A DNA stretch of 64,000 nt from a virus. Its lineage: Duplodnaviria > Heunggongvirae > Uroviricota > Caudoviricetes. The stretch covers positions 37,318 through 101,317 of the IMG/VR virus record IMGVR_UViG_3300014208_000001. One strand, written 5' to 3'. Shown piece after piece: positions 4,039 through 49,461 of the stretch (its first letter is position 1; every line of letters starts with the position of its first letter). The notes beneath the pieces were generated by a model. That model ran no database searches. It saw nothing but the letters and a program-made list of their open reading frames with translations, and had not been told where the DNA came from. A program made the position numbers and the translations under genes.

Positions 4039-4066
4039 TTTTACAACGCATGTTTAATTTGTAATA
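4039..4066. promoter_or_regulatory. Quasi-palindromic element, candidate bidirectional promoter
   Basis: TTTTACA-N14-TGTAATA between divergent ATGs at 4031 and 4074, each 8 nt from the element edge. Confidence 0.7.
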
Positions 4067-4073
4067 TGTGACT

Positions 4074-4397
4074 ATGGAACGCAGAGTATATTATGAAACG
4101 ACTTTTGGTGAAGTTGTTATAAAGTGTGGTATCTTTCATTATACGCTTAGTGATAGATGGTGTATTGATCCTATTGAAGGTGAAGTAAATGAGATTTATA
4201 CTGTTTTGATTGATGATATTGTTGAATATTTGAGCAGTATTTTATCTGTTTATATTGATCATGATGATCGATTAATGTTTGAAGGACGTAAGGATAATGA
4301 AGTGGTTCATGGTAATGTTGATGATTCAATTTTTACCATGACAGTTGGCCAGAAACAAATTACTGTGACACTTGATCAATACGCGGGACTCAAATGA
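4074..4397 (+). CDS. Family A paralogue, first gene of rightward operon
   Basis: VYY, IYTVLIDD, VTLDQY; ATG 4074 preferred over GTG 4068. Confidence 0.8.
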   Translation: MERRVYYETTFGEVVIKCGIFHYTLSDRWCIDPIEGEVNEIYTVLIDDIVEYLSSILSVYIDHDDRLMFEGRKDNEVVHGNVDDSIFTMTVGQKQITVTLDQYAGLK

Positions 4398-4810
4398 TTA
4401 TTTTCACGAGAGATACTTATTTTACTAATATTCAACCATGGATTTATAATGGTAAAATATTAACCAATCCTGTGCGAGATTCTGATATTATTTTGGGCGA
4501 GATACACCAGATTATTCTTAATTATATATTTACGTTTTGTTTAAAGCATGGTTTGGATTGTAATAGCCAATTAGTTCATTGTTTTGATTCTGCTGATGTA
4601 ATTGATATTGGTGTTCATAGCGTAAATGCGGATGATTCTGTTGCTCTCATTTTTAATTTACAAATTACTAATATTGGTATTTTACTGTATGTTGATTCTT
4701 ATCGTACTGGGGTTGATATTGATTACTCTCCAACTTTTGCTGAGTTAGATTTTGATATGCTCACTGGGCATTTGGAATCATGTTTAGATGATTGTGATGT
4801 GGGCACATGA
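4394..4810 (+). CDS. Family A paralogue (divergent)
   Basis: EIHQIILNY helix; ATGA overlap. Confidence 0.7.
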   Translation: MIIFTRDTYFTNIQPWIYNGKILTNPVRDSDIILGEIHQIILNYIFTFCLKHGLDCNSQLVHCFDSADVIDIGVHSVNADDSVALIFNLQITNIGILLYVDSYRTGVDIDYSPTFAELDFDMLTGHLESCLDDCDVGT

Positions 4811-5139
4811 AATATTATTATGATAACGATAATCATATTTGTTATGCGATTTCTTTTGATGGTGAAACAATAAAATATAAGCGGATTTTTGAATATGCTG
4901 ATTATGAGATTTATTGTGTATATGATATAGAAGATGTATTATGTGCGATAATTGATGATTTCGTTGATTATTGTGATCATGTTACGCATAGTTATGCATG
5001 CGAAAATTCTATATGTATAAATGGTATTAAGGATAAGAAAATGGTCAATGTGCATGTTAAAGGTGGCAAAATATCATATTTTATCAATTCTAAAAAAACA
5101 ATGCACGTTACTTTTATTGAGTACTGTGGGTTTAAATGA
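4807..5139 (+). CDS. Family A paralogue
   Basis: MKYYY, LCAIIDDF, VTFIEY. Confidence 0.8.
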   Translation: MKYYYDNDNHICYAISFDGETIKYKRIFEYADYEIYCVYDIEDVLCAIIDDFVDYCDHVTHSYACENSICINGIKDKKMVNVHVKGGKISYFINSKKTMHVTFIEYCGFK

Positions 5140-5516
5140 ACAAGTTAGTTCAAATTATAAGAAGTATTAATGGCGATACTTATAATGGTATTGTTGCTGA
5201 AAATATTTATGGCCGTCTTTATATTAATGATAATTTTATAGGTAATGATACTGATTTTGTTACTCAGAAATTAAATGATGTGTATAGTTCTATAACCATT
5301 GAATGTATTGATTTGATGGATATATATAGTATTGATATTTTTCATCATTATAAGAATAATTATAATGAAATACAAGAAAGATTGTGCATTCATGGGTCTT
5401 TTGAGCATCAAGATGTGCATGTGTGGGCTGATTATGAGTCTGTGACCATATTTTATCGTAATAAAACAGTGGCGATTCCTTTGATTGACTTCGCTAATAT
5501 AAAAGATTATATATGA
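5136..5516 (+). CDS. Family A paralogue
   Basis: DVYSSITIE, IPLIDF. Confidence 0.75.
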   Translation: MNKLVQIIRSINGDTYNGIVAENIYGRLYINDNFIGNDTDFVTQKLNDVYSSITIECIDLMDIYSIDIFHHYKNNYNEIQERLCIHGSFEHQDVHVWADYESVTIFYRNKTVAIPLIDFANIKDYI

Positions 5517-5896
5517 AATATTATTACGATCCAGATATTAGGATCAATAATGTGTATAAAATTAATGATAATGGAAGATTCGTATGTGTTACTGATAGTG
5601 ATGTGTTTGCTTCGTCCGAGTCGCTTATAGAAGAAGCGTCTGAATTATATTCTTTGTTGATTGGTGATTTGTCTAATGTAGTTATGATAAGTAATTTATC
5701 GATGTTTGTTGAATGTTTAATTATAAATGCTTATTTGTCTAAATCAAGAATTGATATAATTATAAATGAATTGAATATAGGATATATGATTAATGATGAT
5801 ACTACGACGTCATATATTAATTTGTGCGATTATACCGGTTTTGATTTTCTTAGAATAGCTGTTAAAAATAAAGAAAGAAGGGAAAGGGTATTTTAA
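5513..5896 (+). CDS. Family A paralogue
   Basis: MKYYY, ELYSLLIGD, INLCDY. Confidence 0.8.
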   Translation: MKYYYDPDIRINNVYKINDNGRFVCVTDSDVFASSESLIEEASELYSLLIGDLSNVVMISNLSMFVECLIINAYLSKSRIDIIINELNIGYMINDDTTTSYINLCDYTGFDFLRIAVKNKERRERVF

Positions 5897-6216
5897 TGGC
5901 TAATTGGTATTTTAGCGATACACATATGAATGTAATTAGTGGTGTTGTGCAAGATATCACACAGTGTAAGAGTGTCGCTATAGAATCTATTCCTGACATG
6001 TATGCTGTTATTCTTGATGAGTTTGCGTCATTGTGGGTCATCGATTATGCTGGTTTATTTAAACCGAACAATTCACCTGAATTTTTGAGAGCATGGGGCG
6101 GCAGTAATATTTTAGAGATTCATGCTAGTGAGATTTTTTTATATGCTCATAGTATGACATTTCGTAGTAGGTTGATTGATTTTGTTAGTATTAGAAATAT
6201 GATTGGTAATAAATGA
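5896..6216 (+). CDS. Family A paralogue
   Basis: DMYAVILDEF, SRLIDF. Confidence 0.75.
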   Translation: MANWYFSDTHMNVISGVVQDITQCKSVAIESIPDMYAVILDEFASLWVIDYAGLFKPNNSPEFLRAWGGSNILEIHASEIFLYAHSMTFRSRLIDFVSIRNMIGNK

Positions 6217-6605
6217 TTTATTACGCTTATAAAAATGATGTTATTTATTATGTTGATGGTGTTTGTGTTAGTTTAAGTGGTGTAGAATATGATAGTGATC
6301 CAAAAGATGATCCGATTTATAATATTGTGGAAATTCAGGAGATTTTTTGTTGTTTGATTGATGAGTTTAGGGAATTGTTTCAAATTAGTGATGCGTTGTC
6401 TGGGCGGATGATGTCTGGTACGCGTATTATTACGGTTTATTATAATAATACATCGTTAAGATTGTACCCAGATAGGTTCAGATTGACTATATATGGGGTT
6501 TTGAAACATTTTAGTGAGGGTGGGTTACTAAATCAGAACAGTGAGATTACAGTGTTTTATCATGATTATACTAATTTAAAAGAACATTTATCGCAATTAT
6601 ACTAA
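6213..6605 (+). CDS. Family A paralogue
   Basis: MIYY, EIFCCLIDEF, VFYHDY. Confidence 0.8.
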   Translation: MIYYAYKNDVIYYVDGVCVSLSGVEYDSDPKDDPIYNIVEIQEIFCCLIDEFRELFQISDALSGRMMSGTRIITVYYNNTSLRLYPDRFRLTIYGVLKHFSEGGLLNQNSEITVFYHDYTNLKEHLSQLY

Positions 6606-6794
6606 TTTATCGTTCTCTTTAGCCCATCTTTCGTATAATTCTGCGAATTGGTCTAAGCCAAATCGTTTTATATTATCTGCTAGATTAGTTAATGATTCGC
6701 ATAATTCATTTTCAGTATTGTGTACAATTGAAAATGAAATTGGAAATTGCCCGTCTTCTGATTTTCTATCTATGATTAATGTGTATTCTGTCAT
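6597..6794 (-). CDS. Small hypothetical protein
   Basis: 65 aa ORF with GGAGG ribosome-binding site upstream. Confidence 0.7.
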   Translation of the reverse strand: MTEYTLIIDRKSEDGQFPISFSIVHNTENELCESLTNLADNIKRFGLDQFAELYERWAKENDKLV

Positions 6795-6810
6795 TTTTTC
6801 CTCCGTTGTA

Positions 6811-6838
6811 TTTTACGGTAATGTTTCATTGTGTAAAA
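6811..6838. promoter_or_regulatory. Quasi-palindromic element, candidate bidirectional promoter
   Basis: TTTTACG-N14-TGTAAAA between ORF 6794(-) and tRNA-like gene 6851(+). Confidence 0.7.
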
Positions 6839-6850
6839 TTCTTTATTCTC

Positions 6851-6933
6851 GGGGAGGTGACAGAGTGGTCTAATGTACAGTTTTTACTGTGTACGGTTTA
6901 CCGTATCGGGGGTTCGAATCCCTCCCTCTTCCG
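6851..6933 (+). tRNA. tRNA-Ser-like (class II) gene with collapsed anticodon arm and no anticodon; possibly pseudo-tRNA
   Basis: Acceptor GGGGAGG/CCTCTTC, D arm ACA-GAGTGGTCTAA-TGT, long variable arm GTACGG-TTTA-CCGTAT, T arm GGGGG-TTCGAAT-CCCTC; anticodon arm only CAGT-TTTT-ACTG; no encoded CCA. Confidence 0.8.
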
Positions 6934-6947
6934 CTTGAAAGAGTAAA

Positions 6948-7589
6948 ATGTCCAAAGAGTTAATTGAATCTCTTGAGAAAAAGTTGCGTGAGGTAACTGC
7001 CGAACGTGACGAAACCGATGCATTATTCGATTTGCAATGGAAAGCTGACCAAAGGGCTATCAAACTCTGGCAAAAAGCACATCCGGGCAAAGAGAACATA
7101 TGGCCAGATCGATGTGATATGGTTGTGTGGTTAATGGACCAGTTAGACAAATTACAGAGTAAAAATCAAATGGCAACAATTGACAAATTCGATGGCGATT
7201 TTGGATTCTTATCTAACTTTTGGCCATCTAAAGTGACCCTTGATGGTGTTGAATTTGATAATGTTGAAGCAGCATTTCAAGCTGCAAAAACACATGATTT
7301 AACCGAACGCGAAAAAATTAGATCCGCATCAACCCCAGGCAAAGCAAAGAAATTAGGCAGAAAAGTATCATTACGCGAAGATTGGAACGATATTAGAATT
7401 AGCGTTATGCGTGATTTACTACAACAAAAATTCAATAATAAAGAATTGCGTAAATTACTAATCGATACTGGTTCAGCAGCACTGGTCGAAGGTAATACAT
7501 GGAACGATAAATTTTGGGGAGTTTGTGATGGCGAAGGAGAGAATAACTTGGGTAAGTTATTGATGGATATTAGAAATGCGTTATTATAA
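6948..7589 (+). CDS. NADAR (YbiA-like) ADP-ribosyl hydrolase with a 74-aa N-terminal extension
   Basis: FLSNFW, EAAFQAAK, AKKLGR, LVEGN.W.DKFWG, GENNLGKLLM; internal ATG at 7170 starts the NADAR domain. Confidence 0.92.
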   Translation: MSKELIESLEKKLREVTAERDETDALFDLQWKADQRAIKLWQKAHPGKENIWPDRCDMVVWLMDQLDKLQSKNQMATIDKFDGDFGFLSNFWPSKVTLDGVEFDNVEAAFQAAKTHDLTEREKIRSASTPGKAKKLGRKVSLREDWNDIRISVMRDLLQQKFNNKELRKLLIDTGSAALVEGNTWNDKFWGVCDGEGENNLGKLLMDIRNALL

Positions 7590-8019
7590 GTGCATGTTTT
7601 CGGATTCGCCATTAGCAACACATCGTATATGCTCATTAATATATATTTCATATGGCATCACGACAACTAACGTTGATGACATAATATGCAAATTTTTAGT
7701 ACAAACAGACTTTGATTATAAAGCTGATTGTAATGTAAAAGTAGAAGAAATATCTGAACTTCACAATATTATAATAAATGACTTTACTAAAATTATTAAA
7801 GATATTAGTGTGGCTAATATTACTGGCAGTAACAATATTCTTGAATTAGTTGGATTTTTAGACGGCGTAAAAGTATTTTTATATGCTGATAATAATGGGC
7901 TAGACATATACTTTGACAGCACATCAGATAGTAACAAAATTTATACAGTTAATATGTTAGAATATGATGGATTACCAATTGAAGAGCGTATGTGCAAACA
8001 CCAGCTTATTGTGAATTAA
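7576..8019 (+). CDS. Family A paralogue
   Basis: MRYY, ELHNIIINDF, VNMLEY. Confidence 0.8.
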   Translation: MRYYKCMFSDSPLATHRICSLIYISYGITTTNVDDIICKFLVQTDFDYKADCNVKVEEISELHNIIINDFTKIIKDISVANITGSNNILELVGFLDGVKVFLYADNNGLDIYFDSTSDSNKIYTVNMLEYDGLPIEERMCKHQLIVN

Positions 8020-8289
8020 ATGCTTTATTATTCACCTATTTTGCATGAATGGGATTACGATTTGCATAAAATTGTAATCAATGATTTTGCGGCAATTGGT
8101 GCAATCGGCACAATATGGTCAAATGGCGGCGATTCGATTCAGATAGACGGTAATTTAAAAGGATATCGTTCTAGTATTATAATAGATGATGTTATCAAAT
8201 TGCTCATATATAAAAGTACTGTTATTACAATCACAGTTAATATCGTTGACTATGTAAGTGTCTGTGATATGATCAAGGATGTCATATGA
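8020..8289 (+). CDS. Family A paralogue (minimal, 89 aa)
   Basis: MLYY, DLHKIVINDF, VNIVDY. Confidence 0.8.
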   Translation: MLYYSPILHEWDYDLHKIVINDFAAIGAIGTIWSNGGDSIQIDGNLKGYRSSIIIDDVIKLLIYKSTVITITVNIVDYVSVCDMIKDVI

Positions 8290-8639
8290 AATTTTATTTT
8301 GGAGATATGCTCAATGCATCTTATAGAGATGTTTATTCTGAGGATATGTATGATTTTGGTATGAATGAACGTGGTTATTATAGAGAGCCATTAGAGACAA
8401 TTCCGGTTGGAGAATTTTACGAAATATTATTAAATGATTTAATCACAATCGCCAAAATAAAGTACGCTGCACAAGTAAATGGTATATTATATGTTGACTG
8501 TATTAAATCATCAAATCCAACACAATTAAGTATAATTGTGACCGGCTCGTATATTAAAATTGGGAAACTTTCCGCAGATATGCATACTATCAATATTTCT
8601 GACTACAATGATTTTGTGGAAGTATTGAATAAAATATGA
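8286..8639 (+). CDS. Family A paralogue
   Basis: MKFY, EFYEILLND, INISDY. Confidence 0.8.
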   Translation: MKFYFGDMLNASYRDVYSEDMYDFGMNERGYYREPLETIPVGEFYEILLNDLITIAKIKYAAQVNGILYVDCIKSSNPTQLSIIVTGSYIKIGKLSADMHTINISDYNDFVEVLNKI

Positions 8640-9031
8640 AATATTATCTTAATTATGCGATACAGGGTTCATTTGGTTCAGATCGCCGCGATGTATTATT
8701 TAGAATCGATGATAGGTTATTTCATTTTGATGGGACAGCTAGCGGATTCACTAACACAAGACCATGCATAGGAATAACATATGAAATTTTTATAGATGAT
8801 TTTGTTAAAAATATGGATCAAATTTTTTCAATAACCTATATAACTAATAACGTCACTTTAGCAGCATATTTAACAATGAATGGGTTATATAAATCACTAG
8901 CGGTTACAGTAACAATTAGTGATTCATCACTTATATTACAATATGTCAAAGACCAGCGTACAATGGAGCATATCAAAATAAATTTACTTGATTATGTAGA
9001 TTTATTGACTCTATTGAAAGAAATTAAATGA
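8636..9031 (+). CDS. Family A paralogue
   Basis: MKYY, YEIFIDDF, INLLDY. Confidence 0.8.
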   Translation: MKYYLNYAIQGSFGSDRRDVLFRIDDRLFHFDGTASGFTNTRPCIGITYEIFIDDFVKNMDQIFSITYITNNVTLAAYLTMNGLYKSLAVTVTISDSSLILQYVKDQRTMEHIKINLLDYVDLLTLLKEIK

Positions 9032-9402
9032 AATATTTTATATATCAGTCAGAAATTTTAATTAAAATTGATAATAATCCGTCGATTCCATACAGTGAAC
9101 CGTATTTTTTAACTGATTTTTCACATGATATGAATCCTATTTTATTTAATAGTAAAGTGCATATATGGATTGGTGAATTATATGAAACTTTGATAGATGA
9201 TTTTAGGAGAATTGGTCGTATAAGACACGCAAAATGTTTAGTAGACAATGCTGTGATGCTGTATGTAACTGTTGTTGACGAGTCATTTACTATCGTATTT
9301 AACAATGCTACTATTTCTATTTTAAAAGGTTTTTGCAATTATTTAATAGTAGAAACACCTTATAATGACTATATTGGATTTAAGGAATTATTTAAATTAT
9401 GA
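9028..9402 (+). CDS. Family A paralogue
   Basis: MKYF, ELYETLIDDF, TPYNDY. Confidence 0.8.
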   Translation: MKYFIYQSEILIKIDNNPSIPYSEPYFLTDFSHDMNPILFNSKVHIWIGELYETLIDDFRRIGRIRHAKCLVDNAVMLYVTVVDESFTIVFNNATISILKGFCNYLIVETPYNDYIGFKELFKL

Positions 9403-18104: not shown

Positions 18105-19811
18105 ATGGTCAAGATCAATACAGCATTAGTGCCGTCAGTCAGTGCTGGTAATGTATTCACAAGATTAACCACAGATGATACATTAAACATCAGATGGCTA
18201 ACAGCAACAGATCCGGTGGTCTACTCAGCAGCTAATAGACCAATAGCCGATATGACTATACGACAATTAGTTATAGCTAAAAGTCTAGATAATATTGGAG
18301 TCAATGTCGGACGGCAAAATATATTCCCATTCCTGGTTCAACCATATGTTGTATCAAGTGCTGGCGAAGCAGCACTACCAACAGGATGGATATGGGATCT
18401 CAGCATGAGTATCCCATGTATTTGGCAAAATGTTAGATTAGCAAAAATTATACGATTAGCAGGTGGAACAAACGCTGGCGGAACAAATGGTGATGTATAT
18501 GACGGTACCGTCACATTAATATTTTCTGGTTCAATGAGTGGCAGCACCACAGAAGTCGGATTATTTAAATGCTCATACGAAATAGATAATACTCTATCTT
18601 ATCAAAAATCACGAATATCATTATGTGAAACTGGCGATTTCACAACAGTAGTTGACAGTACAGAAGCGAATAATTTTTGTGGATTTGTTACATTTAGAAC
18701 ATTAGATACTACAGATACTGAAACTTTAGCATTTCTAGATATTATTGAACCATCAGTAACAGCTGATAATGCATACTACTTAAGTGATACAGCTGCTGGA
18801 GGCACAGCAGTAACTGATGATTTCAGCGCGACTAGTTTATCACATGGTACTGGTTTAATACTTGACGGTGCAGTTAATTCGATTCCAGATGTTGGGTCAA
18901 GCGTTAGTGGATGGTTAGAGGCATTTAATTTTCCGTTTGATGCGGCTGCATCAAGATTAAGTGTTGACAGTATAACAATACCAGTCGGGCTATTCAGAGA
19001 GTTTGATATTTGTGCTCCTGCTGGTGATGAGCCAACTGGTGATACTAGCGGCGAATATTATCCAGTATGGGTTAGTAAGATAACAAGAGTTGGTACTGGT
19101 AGTACATTAAGATTTACATTTAGTACTTATAATATTACTGATGTTGAAACTGGCGGTGCACCCAGCACCGACCCAGTTGATTTTGGATATTTAGATTTAA
19201 GCCAAACCAATACTAGTGGTGAAATTCTTGCAATAGTTCCAAATGATGATTTGTTACTTGGAGGCGGCCATCAAGGATTCGGTAGAGGCCACGTTGTCCT
19301 TTCTAACCTTTGGGGCGACACGAGCGGTACTGTCTCAGCTTTCTTTGATGCCTTCGATACCTTGGTAGGGTCTCCAATAGAAACGGCTTTCGCGCAAAGC
19401 TCGACACGTCTAAGTAATTATGGTATTAGCAGAGTACCAAAATATATTCCAACCATAGATCAATCAAGAGCATTACTAGGAAGTACAGACAGATTAACAA
19501 CTCCAATTGAACCAAGTATAAATAATCGATACGTTTGTGAGCAAGACCAAGGATTAGGTAATCAAGTCGACGTTCAGAGTGTTGGTGGCATCACCACCGC
19601 TATTGAAAATTATGGATATACTGGTAGCCTATGCCACAGATGTGTTAAATTAGTAGTTGATCAAACTAAAATCAACTCAGATAGTGGTTTTTATGATACA
19701 TATGTGTTACCAAAATTAACAGTATTATTGGGACGTCTGCCCTTGTTCGGTGACGTATGGTATAATGGTACTTCATTCCTAACATATAACGGTGACAGCT
19801 GGCAAAGCTAG
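18105..19811 (+). CDS. Probable virion structural protein (acidic, G/S/T/D rich)
   Basis: 568 aa, composition typical of tail/baseplate proteins; C-terminal GDVWYNG...YNGDSW; AAATATATAGTAG upstream. Confidence 0.65.
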   Translation: MVKINTALVPSVSAGNVFTRLTTDDTLNIRWLTATDPVVYSAANRPIADMTIRQLVIAKSLDNIGVNVGRQNIFPFLVQPYVVSSAGEAALPTGWIWDLSMSIPCIWQNVRLAKIIRLAGGTNAGGTNGDVYDGTVTLIFSGSMSGSTTEVGLFKCSYEIDNTLSYQKSRISLCETGDFTTVVDSTEANNFCGFVTFRTLDTTDTETLAFLDIIEPSVTADNAYYLSDTAAGGTAVTDDFSATSLSHGTGLILDGAVNSIPDVGSSVSGWLEAFNFPFDAAASRLSVDSITIPVGLFREFDICAPAGDEPTGDTSGEYYPVWVSKITRVGTGSTLRFTFSTYNITDVETGGAPSTDPVDFGYLDLSQTNTSGEILAIVPNDDLLLGGGHQGFGRGHVVLSNLWGDTSGTVSAFFDAFDTLVGSPIETAFAQSSTRLSNYGISRVPKYIPTIDQSRALLGSTDRLTTPIEPSINNRYVCEQDQGLGNQVDVQSVGGITTAIENYGYTGSLCHRCVKLVVDQTKINSDSGFYDTYVLPKLTVLLGRLPLFGDVWYNGTSFLTYNGDSWQS

Positions 19812-19876
19812 TTAGTTAAGCCAGAAATCATTCAAATTTTTGTGTATTTGAGTAAATAAACTCAAAGGAACACAAA

Positions 19877-21439
19877 ATGGCGATATCGAATGATATAATT
19901 GAAACTATTATTAATTTATATTCACAAAACATATCAATATCAACAATAAGCAAGAAGATTAATATTAGTAAATATCACATCACTAAAATATTAAAATCAG
20001 CTAATATAGAGATTAAAAAATGTAATTATCAAAAATTAAATATTGATATTAATGCGATCAATAAACTATATTATGAAGACAAAAAATCAACATATGATAT
20101 AGCAAAATTATATGGTTGTAGCGATGAAACGATACGTAAATTAGTAGTTGTACGACCTATAGCTGAAAGGAACATATTATCTGAAGAGTCAATCGCTAAA
20201 ATAGCTATTAAATCTAAATTATTATGGCAAAATGAAGAATATATTAAAAAAGTGAAAAATGGAACATCAACTAAAGAGTATAAAGAAAAATTACGAAATG
20301 ATGGTATCAAGAATTATGACATGTCTTTAGGTAAGTGGATGAAATCAGCAGAGAGTAAATTAATTATATCAACATTAGCCAAAAAAAACTGGAATAATCC
20401 AGAATATCGTGCCAAACAAGAGGTGTGGTACTCTGAAAGAATAACACGTATAAGTGCCGCCGCTAAAGAAGCATTAAATGATCCAATACGTAGAGAAAAA
20501 TGGATAAACAAACTACGAAAATCATCGGCAGCAAATAGATTATCCAATGGATGGGTTAGTACACCACAAAAACAATTATATTATATACTTACAGTTTCAG
20601 ATATCACATTTAATGAGGAAGGACCTGACACAATTATAAGTCCTTTTTATACAGTCGATTGTGTAATTCCCAAACAACAAAAAATGCATAGACCTTTAAT
20701 AATAGAAGTGCAAGGCGAATATTGGCATAATCTGCCGCATGTAATTATTAAAGATAAACAAAAAGAAACATATATCCGTAACCATACTGATTATGATTTA
20801 TTAAAATTGGACGAATTAGAATTATCGTCATTTAATCAAATACAAGGAAAATTGAATGAATATGGCTTAATTATAACTAGTATAAATTGTGCAACTAGTG
20901 ATTTAATAATAGAACGAATCTCAGAAGAAGACGCTAAAATGTTTTATTCAATTTTTCATTATACAGGCACAATCAGGAAAGGCGCTATCGCTTTCGGAGC
21001 ATATTATAATAAAGAACTTATATGTGCTATAAGTTATACTTATCCGATGAGAATCGAAACCGCTCAAAAATTAAATTGTCAAATACATGAGATTATGGAG
21101 ATATCAAGATTGGCTAGAAAAACAAATGTAATATGCAAAAATTTAATTAGTTTTATGATAGGAAATACACGTAAAAAATTACAAAATATTGTTAAATTGG
21201 TTAGTTTTTCCGATTCAACATATGGCCATACTGGTAAAGTGTATGCAGCTTCTGGATTTAAATTTGATGGTTTGACTAGTGATGATTATCATTATATTTC
21301 ATTATATGGTAAATATCATAAGAAAACAATATGGGATCGATCCAAACGAATGAAAATGACAGAAGATGAATATGCTGAAAAACATGGACTAATTAAAATA
21401 AAAACATCACCGAAATCACGATGGGTTTATGATATGTGA
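19877..21439 (+). CDS. HTH/helical repeats + Vsr/DUF559-like endonuclease + Mom-like GNAT domain (homing-endonuclease-like)
   Basis: VDC...IEVQGEYWH...D..K nuclease motif; FHY.G, EISRL, LVSFSD...GHTGKVY.ASGF. Confidence 0.8.
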   Translation: MAISNDIIETIINLYSQNISISTISKKINISKYHITKILKSANIEIKKCNYQKLNIDINAINKLYYEDKKSTYDIAKLYGCSDETIRKLVVVRPIAERNILSEESIAKIAIKSKLLWQNEEYIKKVKNGTSTKEYKEKLRNDGIKNYDMSLGKWMKSAESKLIISTLAKKNWNNPEYRAKQEVWYSERITRISAAAKEALNDPIRREKWINKLRKSSAANRLSNGWVSTPQKQLYYILTVSDITFNEEGPDTIISPFYTVDCVIPKQQKMHRPLIIEVQGEYWHNLPHVIIKDKQKETYIRNHTDYDLLKLDELELSSFNQIQGKLNEYGLIITSINCATSDLIIERISEEDAKMFYSIFHYTGTIRKGAIAFGAYYNKELICAISYTYPMRIETAQKLNCQIHEIMEISRLARKTNVICKNLISFMIGNTRKKLQNIVKLVSFSDSTYGHTGKVYAASGFKFDGLTSDDYHYISLYGKYHKKTIWDRSKRMKMTEDEYAEKHGLIKIKTSPKSRWVYDM

Positions 21440-21440
21440 T

Positions 21441-22181
21441 TTATATTATGCTTGATATATCAAATTCAAAGTCGTATGATGCTCTTTTATTTGCAGGTTT
21501 CTCAGGTTCGTGAATAGGTTTATGAGGGCATGATTGTAATATACCATCATGATATTTATTTTTATCTCCTTTAATCATTACTGACATATTACACTCTGGG
21601 CAAAACCTAAGAATTTGTATTAATGGAAACTTATCAATAATTGGTTTAATGGTATCTATATCACCTGGCTCCACATTAGCGGTACCACTATTACCTCTAA
21701 CAACAGACGCATACCCACCAGATGGATAATCACTAGACAATTTCACACCATTTGATTTTAATATATTCTTCCACATATGATCGGTTGCACGCCCAGCATA
21801 ATATTTTTTCACAATTATTGGATCATATCCAAAAGCTAATCCACGTACAAGATGATTCTCAGGTGAGTCAGTATTAATCACTAAATCTACAATATCAGAA
21901 TTCTCTGGTAATGATACCATTAACTGACTACCATAGTCAATTACATATAATCCATTGAGATCGCCTTTAGCATTTTCTTTCCACGGATTGCCGACTAATC
22001 GTGCACCAGTATTCAATTCTTTAATTAGTAATTCGCTAGTGTGCTTATCACCTGGGTTAGTATGATTATGCTTACTCAATGCCCATTTTAATAATTTATT
22101 AACTGGTGGCGATTTTGGAAGAACTTTTGAAAAATAATCATATAAATCATTAGAACTTTCGATTATCGTTTTAAGTTTCAT
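21441..22181 (-). CDS. Hypothetical protein with MKLKTIIE leader (possible internal head protein)
   Basis: Leader motif; CPEC near C-terminus. Confidence 0.65.
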   Translation of the reverse strand: MKLKTIIESSNDLYDYFSKVLPKSPPVNKLLKWALSKHNHTNPGDKHTSELLIKELNTGARLVGNPWKENAKGDLNGLYVIDYGSQLMVSLPENSDIVDLVINTDSPENHLVRGLAFGYDPIIVKKYYAGRATDHMWKNILKSNGVKLSSDYPSGGYASVVRGNSGTANVEPGDIDTIKPIIDKFPLIQILRFCPECNMSVMIKGDKNKYHDGILQSCPHKPIHEPEKPANKRASYDFEFDISSII

Positions 22182-22227
22182 TGTAAAACCTATTGAGATT
22201 GTTTATTGATTTTTGCGTTAGAAACAA

Positions 22228-22440: not shown

Positions 22441-22534
22441 AAATTTTATGTGGCATACAAAACAATTTTTTACTTTACATGTATCACTATCCCAAATTCT
22501 TTCAGTGGTTTCAGATAGTTGTCGTTCTGTGGTT

Positions 22535-22968: not shown

Positions 22969-22996
22969 TTTTACATTATTACGCCGCATTGTAAAA
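22969..22996. promoter_or_regulatory. Perfect inverted repeat element, candidate bidirectional promoter
   Basis: TTTTACA-N14-TGTAAAA between divergent 22960(-) and 23031(+). Confidence 0.7.
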
Positions 22997-24817: not shown

Positions 24818-25255
24818 TTATTCCTCCGTATCAAACATTGTTAACCAGTTTTTGCAAAAATACGAACCATCGTAATCATAAAAAGAGATAGAAATTTCTT
24901 TAAATAACCGTTGATCTATATGGGCATCACAATTAATAAACAATATTTTAACTATCGATGGGTATGCGGCATTTCTTGTAATAATATGAACAACACGTCT
25001 CTGATTAATATCATTAACTTCTACAGAAACATCATTATCAATACAAATCGCATTATTAATTTTCAAATCAAATTTTGTGATTGTGTCATATATATCATTT
25101 AATAATATTGTATTAAAATCATTCAGTTTGCTAATACTAGCTATTTCAATATTAATATTTTTGTTGTTAGTTAATAATTTTGGTGATTGTCCATTGATCA
25201 CTATCGAATAATTTATTGTGCTAAAGTGTGATTGTGCTATATAAAAATCTAGCAT
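24818..25255 (-). CDS. Family A paralogue
   Basis: DFY, DFNTILLND, ISFYDY. Confidence 0.75.
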   Translation of the reverse strand: MLDFYIAQSHFSTINYSIVINGQSPKLLTNNKNINIEIASISKLNDFNTILLNDIYDTITKFDLKINNAICIDNDVSVEVNDINQRRVVHIITRNAAYPSIVKILFINCDAHIDQRLFKEISISFYDYDGSYFCKNWLTMFDTEE

Positions 25256-27038: not shown

Positions 27039-27066
27039 TGTTGCAGCTCATTCTGCTTTTGTAAAT
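27039..27066. promoter_or_regulatory. Copy of quasi-palindromic promoter element
   Basis: TGTTGCA-N14-TGTAAAT, 8 nt from ATG 27031 as at 4031. Confidence 0.6.
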
Positions 27067-34720: not shown

Positions 34721-35875
34721 TTAGTAGTCGGTTTGATTCACAATTTGCTGACCGTAACGACGGCCATCTGGTGTGAGCAAACGAGCATAGACATATTGAT
34801 CCATGTTCTCGCTCAGCGACCGAACACTCCCATCACACATTCCAACATTTAGTGCACCGGCATGATTAGAACTCAAACGTGGCTGGACACTAGTAGATGT
34901 CAAATGCGAGTTGAATCGTGACAGTGTGTTACCAGATCCACCCCAATTAGCAGCGGTAATTGTAGGTGCACCAATTGGATTCAAAGGACCATTATTTGCT
35001 GCTAATGCCGCACTGCTCCAACCAGCAGGTTGATTAGCATCAACAATCCAACCGAAACCAATACGATGCACTAGCGGTGATGCCCAACCACTATTCACAT
35101 CAGTTCCGACTACTGTCAATCCTGCTGTAATATTCTCACCGATCATGATTGTCGACGTGGTCCCATCACTTTGTGAAATGTAATCAAGGCTTGAACGGAA
35201 GGTGTCACTCTTCATCGCCAGTTCGGCTACCGAATTTGGGGCGGTACTAGAAAACATCTGAGCTGGTCGCCAGAACACACCACTGGCATAAGCCACCGAT
35301 GCGTCTTGAGCGGTACCAATTGTGCCATCGACATCATAATCGACACGGTAAGCATCATGTTGGCCGTCACTGAAGTACGATGTCGAAATATATCCGGCAT
35401 TTGCAACGTATGACAACCCCAGCGATTTCTGGTGATTGTTCTGATCGTCTGGACAAGTAAACGCTTTGACCCAGATTTTCTGCTCAGGAGTCAAATCGGC
35501 CGACCCGTTGGTATCGAGATCAGTAGGCGGTGCACTGCGGAATGTTCGATGTAATGCGGCATTGTCCAATGCCGGTAAAATTGTCACAGGCCACGAATGA
35601 ACGTATTGTGTGATTCCGTTTGCCGGATTATCGAGTTGAATTGTATCGACCAGCCGTGGCAGTTTGTCGCCGTTCCCTGTGGCAACATTGTGAATAGCCA
35701 ACACCATTTGCTTGACATTATTTTGACACTCGAGCTTGCGTGCTGCTCGACGGGCGTTTTGAACGGCAGGCAGGATCAGCGACATGAGAACCGCGATGAT
35801 CGAGATCACCACCAACAGTTCAATGAGCGTGAACCCCCTCCGAGAGCCAGATTGATTCTTTCGAAAACTACGCAT
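34721..35875 (-). CDS. DUF1559 family prepilin-type protein with H-X9-DG motif (Planctomycetota type)
   Basis: [42 protein letters not shown]; SW...ILP; CPDD; DGTTST; [15 protein letters not shown]; ATG 35875 after GAGAGGG. Confidence 0.95.
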
Positions 35876-35982
35876 GGTCAAACCCTCTCAATCCTAATGT
35901 GTGTTTGGCGAAATTGCCAACAAACTCTTACAAAATAAACGTAGCCGGTAAAACCCGATCAACAAAAAATCAAATTTATATT

Positions 35983-37196: not shown

Positions 37197-37632
37197 GCTC
37201 CTGAGCGATGCTGTCCAGTTCCATTTGACGTTTCAGTTCTGGGCTAATCACAGAATCAAGTCGACGCTGTAATTCATCTAATTTAGCTCTTTTCTGATTG
37301 ATTTGGATTTTATTAATGCGTGATTGGACATCACTGACCCATTCCTTTGTTGAATACCCATCCCACGTGAATTTTGGTGGATCAATGATACCAAGACTAG
37401 CTGCTGCTATATTATATGATTGTTCTTCGTGCGTGAGGAACGAAACAATACGAATCAATTTAATAATATCATGCTCAACATTCAAATTGATAGCATCAAT
37501 GGGTTTACCAGTGAATGAAAATGAGCAGTTGGTTTTAAGATTTGGCCGTTCAGCATCAGATATTTCTTTCTTCTGCTTTTTGACCAATTCAATCAACGCC
37601 AATGTCGTTTTATCAGTCGTTGCTTTCGCCAT
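37183..37632 (-). CDS. Conserved large-phage coiled-coil protein
   Basis: KTNCSF, GYS..EW..D, ISPELKRQMEL. Confidence 0.7.
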   Translation of the reverse strand: MAKATTDKTTLALIELVKKQKKEISDAERPNLKTNCSFSFTGKPIDAINLNVEHDIIKLIRIVSFLTHEEQSYNIAAASLGIIDPPKFTWDGYSTKEWVSDVQSRINKIQINQKRAKLDELQRRLDSVISPELKRQMELDSIAQELGIE

Positions 37633-38761
37633 TGTCCTTATCCTCAATCAAACTGTTGTGATTTAACAAACACTTCAAACCATTTTCAAGTGTTATCGAT
37701 AATGTTTTATAAGTATTTGGAATATACGTATCAAATGCATCATGTTTTGAATATGATGAATAACTACTATCTCTAACTCTATTAGCATCATATCTATCTT
37801 TAAAACTATTAGCGTTAATTTTACATTGCGACAACACACCGTTATTTAATGTAATTCTAGAATGAATATATGTACAATGTACTCTTTGCGAAGAATACCC
37901 AATATACATATCGTGTTCAGAACATTTTAGAAATGACATTGGCGATTCTTGATGATACCAATAAGTGCTCCAATCGACTTTTTTATATGGGATCAATTTA
38001 ATTTCTGCTATTTTACTACCATATACTGATTTATTGAAATAATCAACTAGCTCTGCATAATTATGTATGATAGTATCAGATACCAACATCGATATACTTG
38101 ATACATCATTTAAGAATGTGAATTTTGGTGGCTTATCTGGATACATATGAATATGATTGATAAATACGTATTTTTTGTCTACTGGTTTTTTGTCAGTCTC
38201 TGGATTATAAATATCAAATCGGCCAATATATACCAAAGATTCTTGTTTCTTATTGATATAAGTGGCACCACGTATTAATTCTTTGGCTTTTATCTTTTGA
38301 CTTTGTAATTTGGTATAATTAGTTGAATCGCTATAATCTTTTGATGATTCGGGCAGCAGAACTAGTTCTGTTCCATCCCATGCGTAGACAAATTTGCCTT
38401 CGAGTCCTTTACCTTTGCTACAATTGCATTCGCGAAGAATGAATAATAAATTGGCTACAGATATTTCGAATTCGAAATTGCGTGGATCATAGATTCTAAT
38501 ATATTCATTACGTGTATTCCAACCGTAACTTTGGCGTGCACCACCAACACCTTTATTAAGTACGAATCCTTCAGTTGGAACATTATCGTATTCAATTGGT
38601 TGGATTTTATCGTCTCTCCAACTTTGCCATGATGTTTCTTTACGCAATACGCCTTTTTGGTCATAGTAAATGACATACGCTAACATACCAGTGTATGTGT
38701 CTTTGCGTTTTTGAAATCCGACATTGATTCGAGACGGAATAAATAATTTTTTGGTTTCCAT
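37613..38761 (-). CDS. Conserved large-phage hypothetical protein
   Basis: VGFQKRKDTYTG.LAYVIYYD.KG.LRKE.SW..WRD, YDPRNFEFEIS. Confidence 0.8.
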   Translation of the reverse strand: METKKLFIPSRINVGFQKRKDTYTGMLAYVIYYDQKGVLRKETSWQSWRDDKIQPIEYDNVPTEGFVLNKGVGGARQSYGWNTRNEYIRIYDPRNFEFEISVANLLFILRECNCSKGKGLEGKFVYAWDGTELVLLPESSKDYSDSTNYTKLQSQKIKAKELIRGATYINKKQESLVYIGRFDIYNPETDKKPVDKKYVFINHIHMYPDKPPKFTFLNDVSSISMLVSDTIIHNYAELVDYFNKSVYGSKIAEIKLIPYKKVDWSTYWYHQESPMSFLKCSEHDMYIGYSSQRVHCTYIHSRITLNNGVLSQCKINANSFKDRYDANRVRDSSYSSYSKHDAFDTYIPNTYKTLSITLENGLKCLLNHNSLIEDKDNGESND

Positions 38762-38790
38762 GTTACTCTCTTACAAGCAAAAACGATCGG

Positions 38791-39186
38791 TTAAAACCAC
38801 CAACCACTCTCATTATAACTGATTTCTGGAAATAATTTAACCAACTCATGATAATGTTCTCTAAATGATGTATACCTAACCCATTCAACAGCTAACATAG
38901 GGCGCTTTATATTCTCATTTTCTCTATAAAAATATAGTCCATAATCAGTAAATTCTAGTATTATATTAAATTTTCTAGTATTGCACAGCATAACACGAAT
39001 ATTATTATTGGAGGTTTGTGTGCGAAAATCATAAACATTCTTCCACCCAACAGGGTGATCTTCTATTTCATTAAAAACAATATTCACTAATAAAGGAACT
39101 TCAGTACGATCAAAATATGAACCACTAATAGAGACCATGCGTGTCGATTTATGCCAATAATACTGATTAATATATGTAATAGTCAT
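38791..39186 (-). CDS. Family A paralogue (divergent)
   Basis: LVNIVFNE, VEWVRYTS. Confidence 0.6.
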   Translation of the reverse strand: MTITYINQYYWHKSTRMVSISGSYFDRTEVPLLVNIVFNEIEDHPVGWKNVYDFRTQTSNNNIRVMLCNTRKFNIILEFTDYGLYFYRENENIKRPMLAVEWVRYTSFREHYHELVKLFPEISYNESGWWF

Positions 39187-40986: not shown

Positions 40987-42126
40987 CTAGTGGTTGAGAC
41001 AGTTACGATAATCGAATTGTGCGAAATTGGGTGTCATCAAACCGGTAAGTCCATTATATTTAATTGTTACAGTTTTACCGATCCAATGATGCTTATTTTC
41101 TAAGCATTCGATGGCTTCTTCCATTGTGCCTTTAAATACAGCATCAAAAATTTTACCATTTGGCATTTTGACACTGATGATTTTAGCTTTGCCGCTCCAG
41201 TTGCCTTTTCCGGGCAAAATATCAAGAATTTCAAATTCGTCATCATCTTCTGGTTTCATTTTTAACAAATTAACACTACGATTATGAACGTATGGTGTAT
41301 TGATATTGCGTAGCATGATACCTTCTTGGCCATCAGCGACAAATTCTTCGTATAGTGCGTTGACTTCTTCCATGGTCGTGACATCATGAGATCGCACGTA
41401 TTCAGTGAATCTATAAATTCCGATCACATTCTGATCAATCCACGCTTTACGCACACGATATGGTGTTTCTTGCATCATCTGATCATTGCCGAACCCATAT
41501 CCATCATAAATATAGAATTTGATGATCTTTTCACTCAATTCTAAATCTTCTGCTGTGATGTTTTTGGTTTTTCGGCATATACTTGAGATCATATTGAGTT
41601 GTTGCCGATAATCATAATTAAATAGTTCACCGTCCAATACAGCATTTGGGTAAACTGTGAAGAATTCTTCTAATGCTCTTGCAATATGGGGAACACTGAT
41701 ATATGGTTCATTCTCGCGTGATTTCATACTATCTTTTGTAATGACGCATCTGAATCCATTGTATTTGCATTGTACAACCCAATGCCCTGTGGATGGGTCG
41801 ACTTTTTTATGGTGCTTTGAATATTTGTGTGCGAGCATCGGTTCAATGTATTTAACAGTGTCAATATCATTAATATTTTCGTGATAATTTGTTTTTAATT
41901 GCTTAGTATATTTCGCGTTGATTTCTTTGGTGGTCTGTTCGGTGGCTGTTGTGGCGTTTTTCTTACCTGTGTTTTTGGGCTCGACTAATGTCCAATCGCT
42001 GTATACTAATTGACCATCTTGCAATCCATTAACAGTGCGATATTTATCGTCATCTTGTTCCATATGCCATACTCTGATTTTGCCTTTTGAATCACGGTGA
42101 TACAGAGTTGGATAGGTAATAGGCAT
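40987..42126 (-). CDS. lig: ATP-dependent DNA ligase
   Basis: PMLA, KYNGFRC (motif I), LDGELF, YIYD, EGIMLR, LLKMK, C-terminal OB domain. Confidence 0.93.
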   Translation of the reverse strand: MPITYPTLYHRDSKGKIRVWHMEQDDDKYRTVNGLQDGQLVYSDWTLVEPKNTGKKNATTATEQTTKEINAKYTKQLKTNYHENINDIDTVKYIEPMLAHKYSKHHKKVDPSTGHWVVQCKYNGFRCVITKDSMKSRENEPYISVPHIARALEEFFTVYPNAVLDGELFNYDYRQQLNMISSICRKTKNITAEDLELSEKIIKFYIYDGYGFGNDQMMQETPYRVRKAWIDQNVIGIYRFTEYVRSHDVTTMEEVNALYEEFVADGQEGIMLRNINTPYVHNRSVNLLKMKPEDDDEFEILDILPGKGNWSGKAKIISVKMPNGKIFDAVFKGTMEEAIECLENKHHWIGKTVTIKYNGLTGLMTPNFAQFDYRNCLNH

Positions 42127-42162: not shown

Positions 42163-42190
42163 TATTACACCATATGTACTTTTTGTAAAG
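42163..42190. promoter_or_regulatory. Quasi-palindromic element, candidate bidirectional promoter
   Basis: TATTACA-N14-TGTAAAG between divergent ligase and ART-like gene. Confidence 0.6.
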
Positions 42191-47630: not shown

Positions 47631-47642
47631 ACTATTCTCCTA

Positions 47643-48062
47643 TCACTTTACTGTTTCTCTTTTTAACTTTTTCATTTCTTTATAAATATTGTCAGCGAAA
47701 TCATCAATGTTAAATTCTTTATTTCTTTTTGGATTTATTTCTGGTTTGCACCACAATTCGATACCATTTAATGAGTGTCCTAATATTCCGCATGTTTTGC
47801 TATAATTTACTAAAAATCTATATGCTGAGCTTAACGATTCATTTTTATTAATTAATTCTTCACCATTAGGCCAATAATCATTGATTACAAACTTAGCAAA
47901 CCAGTATGCCCATTGTGGGCATACGTTAAAATCAGACATCATCATTTGCGTTTTATATCTATCAGCGAATTGCTCAGTGACTTGAAATGCTTGGCCTATA
48001 GTGTATGTATAATTAATATTGTTATTTTTGGCATATTTGTATAATGTTTGGTCAAATAGCAT
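47643..48062 (-). CDS. Hypothetical protein
   Basis: WAYWFAKFVI..WP.GEE.I. Confidence 0.65.
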   Translation of the reverse strand: MLFDQTLYKYAKNNNINYTYTIGQAFQVTEQFADRYKTQMMMSDFNVCPQWAYWFAKFVINDYWPNGEELINKNESLSSAYRFLVNYSKTCGILGHSLNGIELWCKPEINPKRNKEFNIDDFADNIYKEMKKLKRETVK

Positions 48063-48175
48063 TATAACACCAAAAGTACAGAGTGATTAAACCCCACATG
48101 ACGCACATCATACCAACAAATGCGCTTATGCATATTGTTGCATAAATAACGGTGTACGTAAAAATTTGTATTATA

Positions 48176-48544
48176 TTATTTATCATGTATTTCACAAAAT
48201 ACTATTGCTTGTTTAGTATCATGCTGGTCATTGTACCATTCTGTCATATTTTCTGATACTATATCAGCACATTCACTATTTGGCAAATTAGAACATCCAT
48301 ATAATTCATAATTTTTATAATCTTTAGAATATGCTATAACAGCTTTGAATGCTCTAATGTCAGTATGTTTATCACATGATATTTTATTACATCTATCGCA
48401 TATTACTTTAAACGTTAATTTATTATTTTCAATACTAACTACTGCCGATAATTTATGTATCCCTAGAAAGCACAATAATTGATAAAATGGCTCAAAATAC
48501 AGTTTGATGATTTCAATCACCTTCACGGGAGGCAATTTGGCCAT
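48176..48544 (-). CDS. Hypothetical protein with DUF1660-like Zn motif
   Basis: LCFLGIHK...CDRC. Confidence 0.6.
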   Translation of the reverse strand: MAKLPPVKVIEIIKLYFEPFYQLLCFLGIHKLSAVVSIENNKLTFKVICDRCNKISCDKHTDIRAFKAVIAYSKDYKNYELYGCSNLPNSECADIVSENMTEWYNDQHDTKQAIVFCEIHDK

Positions 48545-48546
48545 GT

Positions 48547-49416
48547 TTACTTTCTCAGTAAGAATGTGGCTTTCTTTTTCCTAATAATCAAATCAACTTT
48601 AGGGAGAGAAACTCTAGTAGATGCACCAAGCGTTAACAATACATCAATCGCGTCCCAGTGTCTCTTAGCAAATTTTGATGTGTCATATTTAGATTTAACA
48701 TACCTAATCATGTTATATTTATTTAATTTATTACCAGCATATTTAACGCAATCGATAACATCACAATCGATAAAATCACTTGACAAATTATCAATAATAT
48801 TCGAAACCTCGAGCATATTAGAAGAAAAATTCACCAAATTACAAACCACGTCACGGTTCATAATAGATGATGCTAATGGCAATAATTGACGTCTGATAGC
48901 GTTACGAGTATAGATATCAGTATTATTTGTCTCATCGATAATATGATCTTGTTCAATCGACGCTAAGTATTTTACAATCTCATACTTACGCAAATTCAAT
49001 AATGGCCGATAAAAATTAAGGGTTTTACCATTATGAGTGATATTAACTTTTTCTTTAAGACTACAACACCCATTGATCCCAGATCCACGAAGGATATTAA
49101 ACATTACTGTTTCTGCAACATCATCCATATTATGTGCCGTGTGCAAAATATTATTACTATGATTAGTGGCTAATATATTCAAACGTGCTTCTCGTGCGTC
49201 GCATTCTGAAGCTGCTGGCCCGAGATTCAAATGATAAATAGTGAGTTTGATACCGTATTTTTCACACAAATCAGTAACGAATTTGGCGTCAAGATATGAA
49301 TTCTCTCTAATACCATGATCAAAATGTACAACTTCAAATGAGATGTTATTCTCAATTGCTTTACGCAACATTGCGACTGAGTCTGACCCGCCAGATACTA
49401 ATAATACATTAAACAT
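48547..49416 (-). CDS. tilS: tRNA(Ile)-lysidine synthase (short form)
   Basis: PP-loop SGGSDS, HFDHGIR, AREAR, TAHNMDDVAET, RGSG, RPLL, DETN, RNAIR. Confidence 0.92.
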   Translation of the reverse strand: MFNVLLVSGGSDSVAMLRKAIENNISFEVVHFDHGIRENSYLDAKFVTDLCEKYGIKLTIYHLNLGPAASECDAREARLNILATNHSNNILHTAHNMDDVAETVMFNILRGSGINGCCSLKEKVNITHNGKTLNFYRPLLNLRKYEIVKYLASIEQDHIIDETNNTDIYTRNAIRRQLLPLASSIMNRDVVCNLVNFSSNMLEVSNIIDNLSSDFIDCDVIDCVKYAGNKLNKYNMIRYVKSKYDTSKFAKRHWDAIDVLLTLGASTRVSLPKVDLIIRKKKATFLLRK

Positions 49417-49433
49417 GATATCTCCTAATAATA

Positions 49434-49461
49434 TATTGCAAAGATCACTCGAAGCGTAAAT
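49434..49461. promoter_or_regulatory. Quasi-palindromic element, candidate bidirectional promoter
   Basis: TATTGCA-N14-CGTAAAT between divergent tilS and 49499. Confidence 0.6.

Follow-up and report, generated by a model that had tools for sequence, protein, structure and literature searches.

A near-palindromic, probable sigma-70-type promoter motif, likely two-way when close to consensus, in an uncultured jumbo phage

Introduction

Divergent transcription from one short stretch of DNA has been described in bacteria, and the closest known systems are compared here with a recurrent dyad of a phage genome, TT(A/G)CA-N14-(T/C)G(T/C)AA (TTRCA-N14-YGYAA). The dyad was noticed in the window, i.e., the whole 64,000-nucleotide stretch under analysis, which represents bases 37318-101317 of a single 355,825-bp contig (IMG/VR record IMGVR_UViG_3300014208_000001). 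A first-pass annotation of the window had proposed it as a self-complementary bidirectional promoter of divergent junctions. IMG/VR lists the contig as a complete viral genome that carries direct terminal repeats. It originates from groundwater metagenomes, has a GC content of 34%, and represents an uncultured jumbo phage. Its products include Mom-like proteins, a DNA ligase, and a tail protein, and several proteins bearing a helix-turn-helix (HTH) are encoded in the window. No match at the DNA level was obtained by blastn of a 3.3-kb stretch against deposited phages.

A close parallel is known from pLS20, a plasmid of Bacillus subtilis. There, promoter Pr (aaGAtA-17-TgTAAa) coincides with the divergent promoter Pc (TTtACA-17-TATctT), and primer extension located the starts of both transcripts (Ramachandran et al. 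2014, PMC4207663). As would be the case in the phage, the -35 box of one promoter is the -10 region of the other, both ways, on the same short non-transcribed stretch. In pLS20, however, there is a single regulator-controlled switch, the hexamers coincide exactly, the spacer is 17 bp in either direction, and Pr is a weak promoter that depends on an activator. In the phage, the palindromic hexamers are 14 bp apart, and the -35 box overlies the TGn and half of the -10 region. The design recurs at six junctions from the consensus itself, and leaderless mRNAs are predicted for one or both directions, from starts that, unlike those of pLS20, are predicted only.

The bidirectional promoters of Warman, Grainger, and co-workers share a symmetric -10 element, with separate flanking -35 boxes and starts 18, 10, or 23 bp apart (PMC12825309, PMC10268837). 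Pseudo-symmetric DNA, binding of the polymerase in either orientation, and exclusion of one binding event by the other would be common to both systems. In contrast, each -10 region of the phage element overlies the -35 box of the other direction, and the predicted starts are about 43 bp apart.

The early promoters of phage T4 have an UP/-35/TGn/-10 design with canonical -35/TGn spacing and occur as many strong, near-identical copies (Hinton 2010, PMC2988021). As in the phage studied here, -35/TGn/-10 promoters head arrays of small genes (early ones in T4), and T4 has no RNA polymerase of its own. T4 early promoters differ in their canonical TAtAAT -10 hexamer, in not being self-complementary, and in their leadered mRNAs. 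The present phage has an A-rich -10 region without a conserved T at -7, and its own sigma factor with a region 4.

As for leaderless transcription, the known genes with a -10-like signal right before the start are host genes of Actinobacteria or Deinococcus (surveyed, for example, in PMC3160421 and PMC4007540) or single phage repressor genes such as lambda cI, expressed from PRM. The likeness lies in a -10 region fixed 6-8 nt before an AUG that opens an open reading frame (ORF), with no room for a Shine-Dalgarno (SD) sequence. Unlike these cases, about 18 genes of one lytic-type jumbo phage would be concerned, sometimes on both sides of one element.

The arrangement is a tidy variant of a known one and represents no new principle. 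What appears to be new is the 14-bp distance between hexamers, the near self-complementary consensus, the recurrence over one jumbo-phage genome, and the predicted leaderless starts.

The motif and its spacing

In the window, TTRCA-N14-YGYAA has 16 matches, as against 2.6 +/- 2.0 expected from 100 dinucleotide shuffles, none of which reaches 16. The same half-sites occur 21 times in the whole genome at spacer 14 and 1-7 times at each other spacer from 6 to 25. Thirteen of the 21 are intergenic, although only 8% of the genome is. The strict palindrome TTACA/TGTAA is found 10 times genome-wide at N14 and 0-4 times at other spacers. When the 4-mer dyads of all intergenic DNA were ranked with no motif preset, TACA-N14-TGTA came first (p about 6e-19). 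The exact directional form TTTAC-N15-TGnAAnA has 44 matches at N15 (29 intergenic), compared with 7 at N14, 8 at N16, and 1-4 at other spacings. A chance origin of the motif is excluded. The earlier expectation that the element would exceed both chance and its frequency within genes was borne out, with N14 as the only peak, and all ten sites that it listed read as they had been written.

De novo motif discovery by expectation maximisation in intergenic DNA recovered the motif from 2 of 40 seeds, being swamped by the strand-composition bias of the genome. The motif was then defined by dyad statistics and seeded refinement of a position weight matrix (PWM) across the genome. This refinement yields about 90-110 sites with a cut-off of 11.5, for scores that have a genome-wide mean of -26 and a standard deviation of 9. 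Sixty-four of 96 PWM loci are intergenic or at gene 5' ends. The motif is probably a general promoter of about 60 intergenic sites, mostly one-way, and the initial idea that it is special to divergent junctions is not supported. The sequence statistics establish the motif, its rigid spacing, its orientation relative to genes, and its fixed distance to start codons. Contigs assembled from four DNA runs over window positions 3500-23499 were short, low-depth, near-identical pieces and gave no usable conservation signal at the elements. Among the runs listed for this DNA, none is from RNA.

Promoter layout and polarity

Read along the genes, the directional consensus is tTTTACn-N14-TGnAAtA (tTTTAC-N15-TGnAAtA in PWM form). 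The upstream box, t-T-T-T-A-C-n, resembles a -35 box. Its T, T, A, and C are conserved at 93, 93, 82, and 98%, and it equals TTGACA except for T instead of G at -33. A TG (76% and 99%) follows exactly 14 nt past the hexamer, in agreement with the 17 +/- 1 bp spacer of sigma-70 promoters and with the -15/-14 position of the TG in extended ones. The -10 hexamer at the 17-bp spacer reads A-A-t-A-n-t, with A at -11 in 97% of the copies and A instead of T at -12. The early -35 consensus of T4 is GTTTAC rather than TTGACA and would match the TTTAC found here. The motif is rather likely to have the bipartite layout of a sigma-70-type promoter, i.e., a -35 box, a TGn, and an A-rich -10 region. The first-pass annotation had taken each box as the -35 of one strand and the -10 of the other. 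The bipartite -35/extended -10 behaviour stands, whereas a hexamer-on-hexamer superposition does not, as the -35 box overlies the TGn and the first three bases of the -10 region.

The polarity of the motif comes from a very high-scoring subgroup (class-I) located at 0.5-31 kb and 350-355.8 kb of the genome. These copies lie between minus-strand genes and are strongly asymmetric. Along the genes, they read TTTAC(C/G)GG-N12-TGAAATAG, with scores of 20-28 forward and 3-10 for the mirror. Their asymmetry, together with the gene direction, fixes the polarity of the whole motif family. In minus-minus contexts, 23 of 28 copies are oriented along the genes (p = 9e-4), including every strongly asymmetric one. 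Variants with CG for TG are present among the high-scoring one-way copies.

Start codons and leader classes

The motif stands at a fixed distance from start codons. Of 110 sites, 15 have the ATG of an ORF of at least 45 aa at a distance of exactly 8 nt from the final A, and three more have it at +9, with 0.47 expected per offset. The Poisson probability of the pile-up at +8, computed from these numbers, is below 1e-15. SD motifs cluster at +7 to +9 after the final A, and the ATG of this group follows at +18 to +23. In class-I copies of the terminal regions, the ATG is found at +36 to +41. These three leader classes suggest a single start site about 8 nt past the motif. With TG set at -15/-14, the A of the +8 ATGs falls at -1/+1, which is the signature of a leaderless mRNA. 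At the 18 sites with ATG at +8 or +9, a -10-like element thus stands at a fixed 6-8 nt ahead of the AUG with no SD sequence. Transcription would start about 8 nt past the last conserved A, which would be the A of the ATG in roughly 30% of the copies. In a second group, the start would be the first base of the SD sequence.

The earlier placement of an ATG or SD sequence where the transcript would begin proved sound. The ATGs at 4031, 4074, 15999, 22960, 27031, and 38761 are 6-8 nt away from the edge of the 28-bp element, and CTCC-type SD complements end at 6804, 13990, and 49426. The N-termini encoded at 4031 (MTTNYYY) and 4074 (MERRVYY) align with the M-x-YY starts of their paralogues. If the reading is true, a lytic-type phage would be shown to use leaderless starts in bulk. 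The motif is also of value for annotation, as it pinpoints the correct start codon in many small ORFan genes.

In the arrays at 82-6605 of the window, internal genes mostly have no upstream SD sequence, and stop and start codons overlap. Translation there seems to be largely SD-independent, which fits a tolerance of leaderless starts.

Two-way reading at divergent junctions

Since TTTACA is the reverse complement of TGTAAA, a near-consensus copy reads as a promoter on both strands. This applies to copies that have A at position 4 and T after the TG. Scores of at least 11.5 on both strands are reached at 12 or more loci genome-wide, whereas mirror positions shifted by 1-3 nt never reach this value. 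At six divergent junctions, two of them in the window, a single element lies at the canonical start distance from both genes.

The clearest junction is at 4039..4066 of the window (genome 41358), between two head-to-head arrays of small genes, where the element scores 19.2 (+) and 14.9 (-). Rightward, it reads TTTTACA-N14-TGTAATA ahead of ATG 4074. Its leftward mirror, TATTACA-N14-TGTAAAA, precedes ATG 4031. The ATG is at +8 on both sides, the start codons are 43 bp apart, and the 42 bp between them leave no room for a second promoter. At 22969..22996 (genome 60288), TTTTACA-N14-TGTAAAA is a perfect 7+7 palindrome scoring 13.5 (+) and 14.9 (-). The leftward ATG 22960 is 9 nt past the final A, and the rightward gene (23031-23543, start at +35) would have a leader of about 27 nt. 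Outside the window, the starts are at +9 and +60 (genome 237151), +11 and +9 (286311), and +8 and about +40 (347365), and genome 345420 has +8 on one side and an SD sequence with ATG at +20 on the other. As on pLS20, the -35 box of one direction takes the place of the -10 region of the other (both strands score at least 13.5 at 4039, 22969, and four further junctions), here with an offset of 3 nt because the TGn, not the -10 hexamer, pairs with the -35 box.

A single 28-bp element most likely serves both genes at these six junctions, 4039 and 22969 included. From the sequence we infer that the motif initiates transcription and that the mirror reading fires. The predicted starts of the two directions would be about 43 bp apart and, with one polymerase bound at a time, the two directions would compete. 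The element is likely the main promoter of the phage, probably early or middle, and would be recognised by the core RNA polymerase of the host together with a factor of the sigma-70 type. If true, this would provide a small natural two-way promoter of 28 bp whose consensus is defined, and a list of about 60 promoters of an uncultured giant phage, divided into three leader classes. It would also add a second geometry of bacterial bidirectional promoters, with the -35 box over TGn/-10 and starts 43 bp apart, next to the type with a shared -10.

On balance, the likely explanation is judged to be a phage promoter of the sigma-70 type whose near-consensus copies are inherently two-way. Several points weigh against it. 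About 30 of the 96 PWM loci lie within genes and are possibly false positives, and the gene calls are a crude longest-ORF set. The usually invariant T at -7 is missing from the -10 region (T in only 42% of the copies), and a 16-bp alignment, nAAtAn, is no better at this position. The spacing is more rigid than that of typical sigma-70 promoters. Mirrors are weak at four of the six junctions named by the first-pass annotation. Moreover, the share of copies with a good mirror is 25%, which equals the PWM prediction of 24%, and divergent junctions show no significant excess of symmetric copies. The agreement with the prediction is partly circular, as the PWM was built with palindromic copies counted on both strands. 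Perfect TTACA/TGTAA cores occur at 7 of 22 divergent junctions and at 3 of 33 one-way sites, a plain tally with no statistic, in which the gap narrows once near-duplicate class-I copies are removed. Symmetric copies are also found at one-way sites without a second gene (genome 240286, 319417, 226004, and 329829). These sites and the good-mirror share as predicted make the symmetry a property of the consensus rather than an adaptation shown for divergent pairs. The symmetry makes two-way promoters available; selection for divergent junctions is not demonstrated.

The sigma factor and the host

The first-pass annotation had advised a search for a phage sigma factor or RNA polymerase, and the former was found. 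One sigma-70-family gene lies at 176584-177633 (+) of the genome (G000:C1) and encodes 349 aa with a PHROG assignment as 'RNA polymerase sigma factor' and a Pfam region 4. No phage RNA polymerase was detected by Pfam models for Rpb2, Rpb1, and T7-like polymerases, though very divergent ones could escape. The 4.2 helix of the sigma factor, TRERVRQIE, is primary-sigma-like and corresponds to the canonical -35-reading helix. In the alignment, region 2.3 is without the conserved aromatic residues. The sigma gene has no main motif upstream and carries a TAATAA box 6 nt before its ATG. With the search used, no relatives of the sigma gene and of a 440-aa gene were recovered from IMG/VR.

The closest relative found is IMGVR_UViG_3300013121_000020 (G001; 354 kb, 38.7% GC), with 52% identity in a 568-aa protein. 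Its top intergenic signal, T(T/A)ACGG-N12-GCCACA, occurs 39 times at the N15 gap and 5-19 times at other spacings, and points towards genes (e.g., 222-267 kb). This motif was taken from a regular expression with spacer control; PWM iteration on G001 was discarded because of drift into coding periodicity. The distal box and the 15-nt gap are common to both phages, whereas the proximal box GCCACA is unrelated and non-complementary. G001 has a sigma homologue at 267747-268403 with the same TRERVRQIE helix. In the relatives G002 to G004, two of which are incomplete genomes, neither the motif nor a sigma homologue was found. The pattern has 0 matches in G001, G002, and G004 and 5 in G003. Relatives identified through the DNA ligase (42-49% identity) show neither motif nor synteny at the orthologous junctions.

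A clue to the host comes from a DUF1559/N-methyl (pseudopilin-like) gene at 34721-35881 (-) of the window. It forms a GC island of 48.5%, compared with about 30% in the flanks. The closest copy, in OW818684.1, shares 83% identity at the protein level and 71% at the DNA level. OW818684.1 is a 7.8-Mb chromosome with about 64% GC in a sampled 20 kb, and more distant homologues belong to Pirellulales and other Planctomycetota. The gene is probably host-derived, and the host is probably a planctomycete; the promoters of planctomycete hosts and their phages are essentially unstudied. The homologue in OW818684.1 has no phage-type motif upstream. The captured gene sits in the phage behind a phage-type promoter, TTTACCGG-N12-TGTAAGA at 35926..35951, which is one-way leftward with a PWM score of 22.8 (-). 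Both 16S promoters of OW818684.1 are canonical TTGACG-N16/17-TAnnAT. The pattern has 4 matches in this chromosome and a control pattern 0, which is uninformative.

Reading by the primary sigma factor of the host, in the manner of the classical T4-style early promoters, is the strongest alternative to reading by the phage factor. Small ORFans, as are usual among early genes, lie downstream. The strongest copies, at genome 0.5-31 kb and 350-355 kb, adjoin the terminal repeats, and in phages it is generally an end of the genome that is injected first. The missing aromatics in region 2.3 would also fit the host factor, and the layout equals the T4 early -35/TGn/-10 design (PMC2988021). Against it, if the OW818684.1 lineage is the host, its 16S promoters are canonical, whereas the motif carries T rather than G at -33 and lacks a conserved T at -7. 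Only G001, which shares the distal box and the spacing, has a sigma homologue, and the other three relatives have neither. To our knowledge, GCCACA resembles the -10 element of no primary sigma factor. Reading by the host factor is a tentative option, somewhat short of an even chance. The comparisons with the host 16S promoters and with the relatives lean towards the sigma factor of the phage, for which the chances seem about even, and some other sigma factor is a poor candidate.

A more specific scenario is on the whole doubtful. The diverged phage sigma would read the motif, and the -35 and TGn/-10 boxes would have evolved as reverse complements, so that the holoenzyme could dock either way and give two leaderless mRNAs from a 42-bp region. 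As the scaffold of a TTAC box and a fixed 15-nt gap is kept in G001 next to a different proximal box and a diverged sigma, there would be a family of sigma/promoter pairs in jumbo phages in which the -35 reading is kept and the -10 reading is swapped. The comparison with G001 offers a pair of sigma and promoter specificities open to testing.

Alternative readings of the symmetry

According to another explanation, all copies are one-way promoters, the mirror is an unproductive by-product of a near-palindromic consensus, and the second gene of each pair is served by another, unrecognised signal. This would account for the good-mirror share and for the symmetric copies at the four one-way sites, where a transcript from the mirror would have no use or run antisense. 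The junction at 49434, which has a separate back-to-back promoter, also fits. There is no room for another promoter, however, between the start codons at 4039 or at genome 286311 (+9 and +11), no other motif match lies within 220 bp of the junctions examined, and mirror ATGs at +7 to +9 recur. A purely one-way function is thus considered improbable.

The symmetry could alternatively mark an operator for a dimeric phage or host regulator of divergent genes, with the promoter within or beside it. The rigid spacing and the perfect 5-7 bp arms of some copies are in line with this reading, as are the several HTH-bearing proteins encoded in the window. In contrast, about 20 high-scoring copies are asymmetric, with TTTAC[C/G]GG facing TGAAATAG, and all of them are oriented along the genes, so that two-fold symmetry is not a general property. 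The two halves differ in their extended consensus, and the ATG keeps the constant distance that a transcription start would have. The centres of the half-sites are separated by 19 bp, which does not correspond to whole helical turns, and G001 keeps the distal box and the spacing with the unrelated proximal box GCCACA. An operator is very improbable, and the dimeric regulator, which the first-pass annotation had kept as its alternative, is disfavoured by the systematic, gene-oriented asymmetry. A regulator may additionally bind the symmetric copies of the two-way promoter. Four further candidates were rejected: a terminator or hairpin (arms of 5-7 AT-rich bp, a 14-nt loop, and a location at gene starts, not ends), a sigma-54 promoter (no GG at -24), a Bacteroidetes-type TTTG/TAnnTTTG promoter (no match), and a promoter for a phage-encoded RNA polymerase (none by the Pfam models).

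Further elements in the window

The elements head the arrays of small genes at 82-4031 (-), 4074-6605 (+), and 12456-15999 (-), as had been claimed for the family A arrays. The additional claim of two transcripts from each 28 bp is supported for 4039 and 22969, which score well on both strands, and is not supported at four other junctions, where the mirrors score below the cut-off.

At 6811..6838, TTTTACG-N14-TGTAAAA is a strong putative rightward promoter (17.7 on the plus strand, 7.9 on the minus strand). Its weaker leftward mirror, TTTTACA-N14-CGTAAAA, is followed by an SD sequence, GGAGG, that begins 7 nt beyond it, and by ATG 6794. The rightward candidate at 16006..16033, TTTACT-N14-TGCAATA, precedes gene 16069-16839 and scores 18.8 (+). 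Its mirror, TTGCA/AGTAAAG, is poor (-2.9). The ATG of the leftward gene 15562-15999 lies 7 nt outside this mirror, and no further motif match was found for this gene within 220 bp. At 42163..42188, TTTACA-N14-TGTAATA would act leftward on the DNA ligase gene (40987-42126; Pfam) with 13.5 (-), and the rightward mirror TTACA/TGTAAAG is weak (6.3). The junction at 49434 had been presented as a shared element. Instead, two back-to-back promoters with abutting -35 boxes are predicted at 49434..49487. The leftward one, TTTACG-N14-TGCAATA (49459 down to 49434), scores 14.2, with a mirror of 5.3, and has AGGAG at +7 and ATG 49416. The separate rightward candidate, TTACA-N14-CGGAAATA (49462-49487), scores 10.1 and stands ahead of ATG 49499.

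Several elements appear to be one-way. Leftward candidates include TTTACA-N14-TGCAACA at 27039..27064, with a presumably leaderless ATG 27031 at +8 for gene 26738-27031 (16.9 on the minus strand, mirror 8.2), and TTTTACG-N14-TGCAACA at 48136..48161, between two minus-strand genes (16.7 on the minus strand, 8.1 on the plus strand). Two sites had been called weaker, and their PWM scores are indeed low, yet their minus-strand geometry is right. At 38769..38794, TTTTAAC/TGTAAGA (10.5) has a probably leaderless ATG 38761 at +8 for gene 37613-38761. The very weak candidate TTAAC/TGCAATA at 13997..14022 (4.5) lies before gene 13402-13992 with GGAGA 7 nt beyond it; only its -10-like half and the SD distance fit.

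A probable internal promoter, TTACG-N14-TGCAAAA, is situated at 24850..24875 (-) in the 3' end of gene 24818-25255, with a score of 15.1. It would probably drive 24482-24817 via an SD-led start, GGAGG and the ATG being 33 nt downstream. At 51732..51757, TTTTACC-N14-TGCAATA (19.0 on the plus strand) is a probable rightward promoter of ORF 51806-52252; a competing minus-strand ORF overlaps, and the context is uncertain.

Other signals in the genome

The canonical TTGAC-N17-19-TAnnnT is not enriched in the genome. Two near-perfect extended -10 promoters, TTGACA-N14-TGn-TAYAAT, are present in intergenic DNA outside the window, at genome 22924 (-) and 267813 (+). The former heads a 19-gene minus-strand array that also carries internal class-I promoters. 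Both may be immediate-early promoters read by the host sigma factor.

A second promoter-like motif, (C/T)AAATATA(T/A), is located 10-25 nt before the SD-led starts of many large genes and has no -35 box. In upstream regions without the main motif, (C/T)AAATATA(T) is enriched, with 24 regions against 7 expected. Examples in the window are at 18065 (+, ahead of 18105-19811), 28044 (-), 54567 (-), and 61272 (-). It looks like the T4-late-type class of promoters with a -10 element only.

Two large proteins, encoded at 19877-21439 (+) and 56145-57485 (-) of the window, have an HTH at the N-terminus, HNH-like segments, and a Mom-like DNA-modification domain at the C-terminus. CCCC-N16/17-GGGG and CCGG-N9-CCGG dyads are strongly enriched between genes and are probably terminator hairpins of the GC-rich terminal region.

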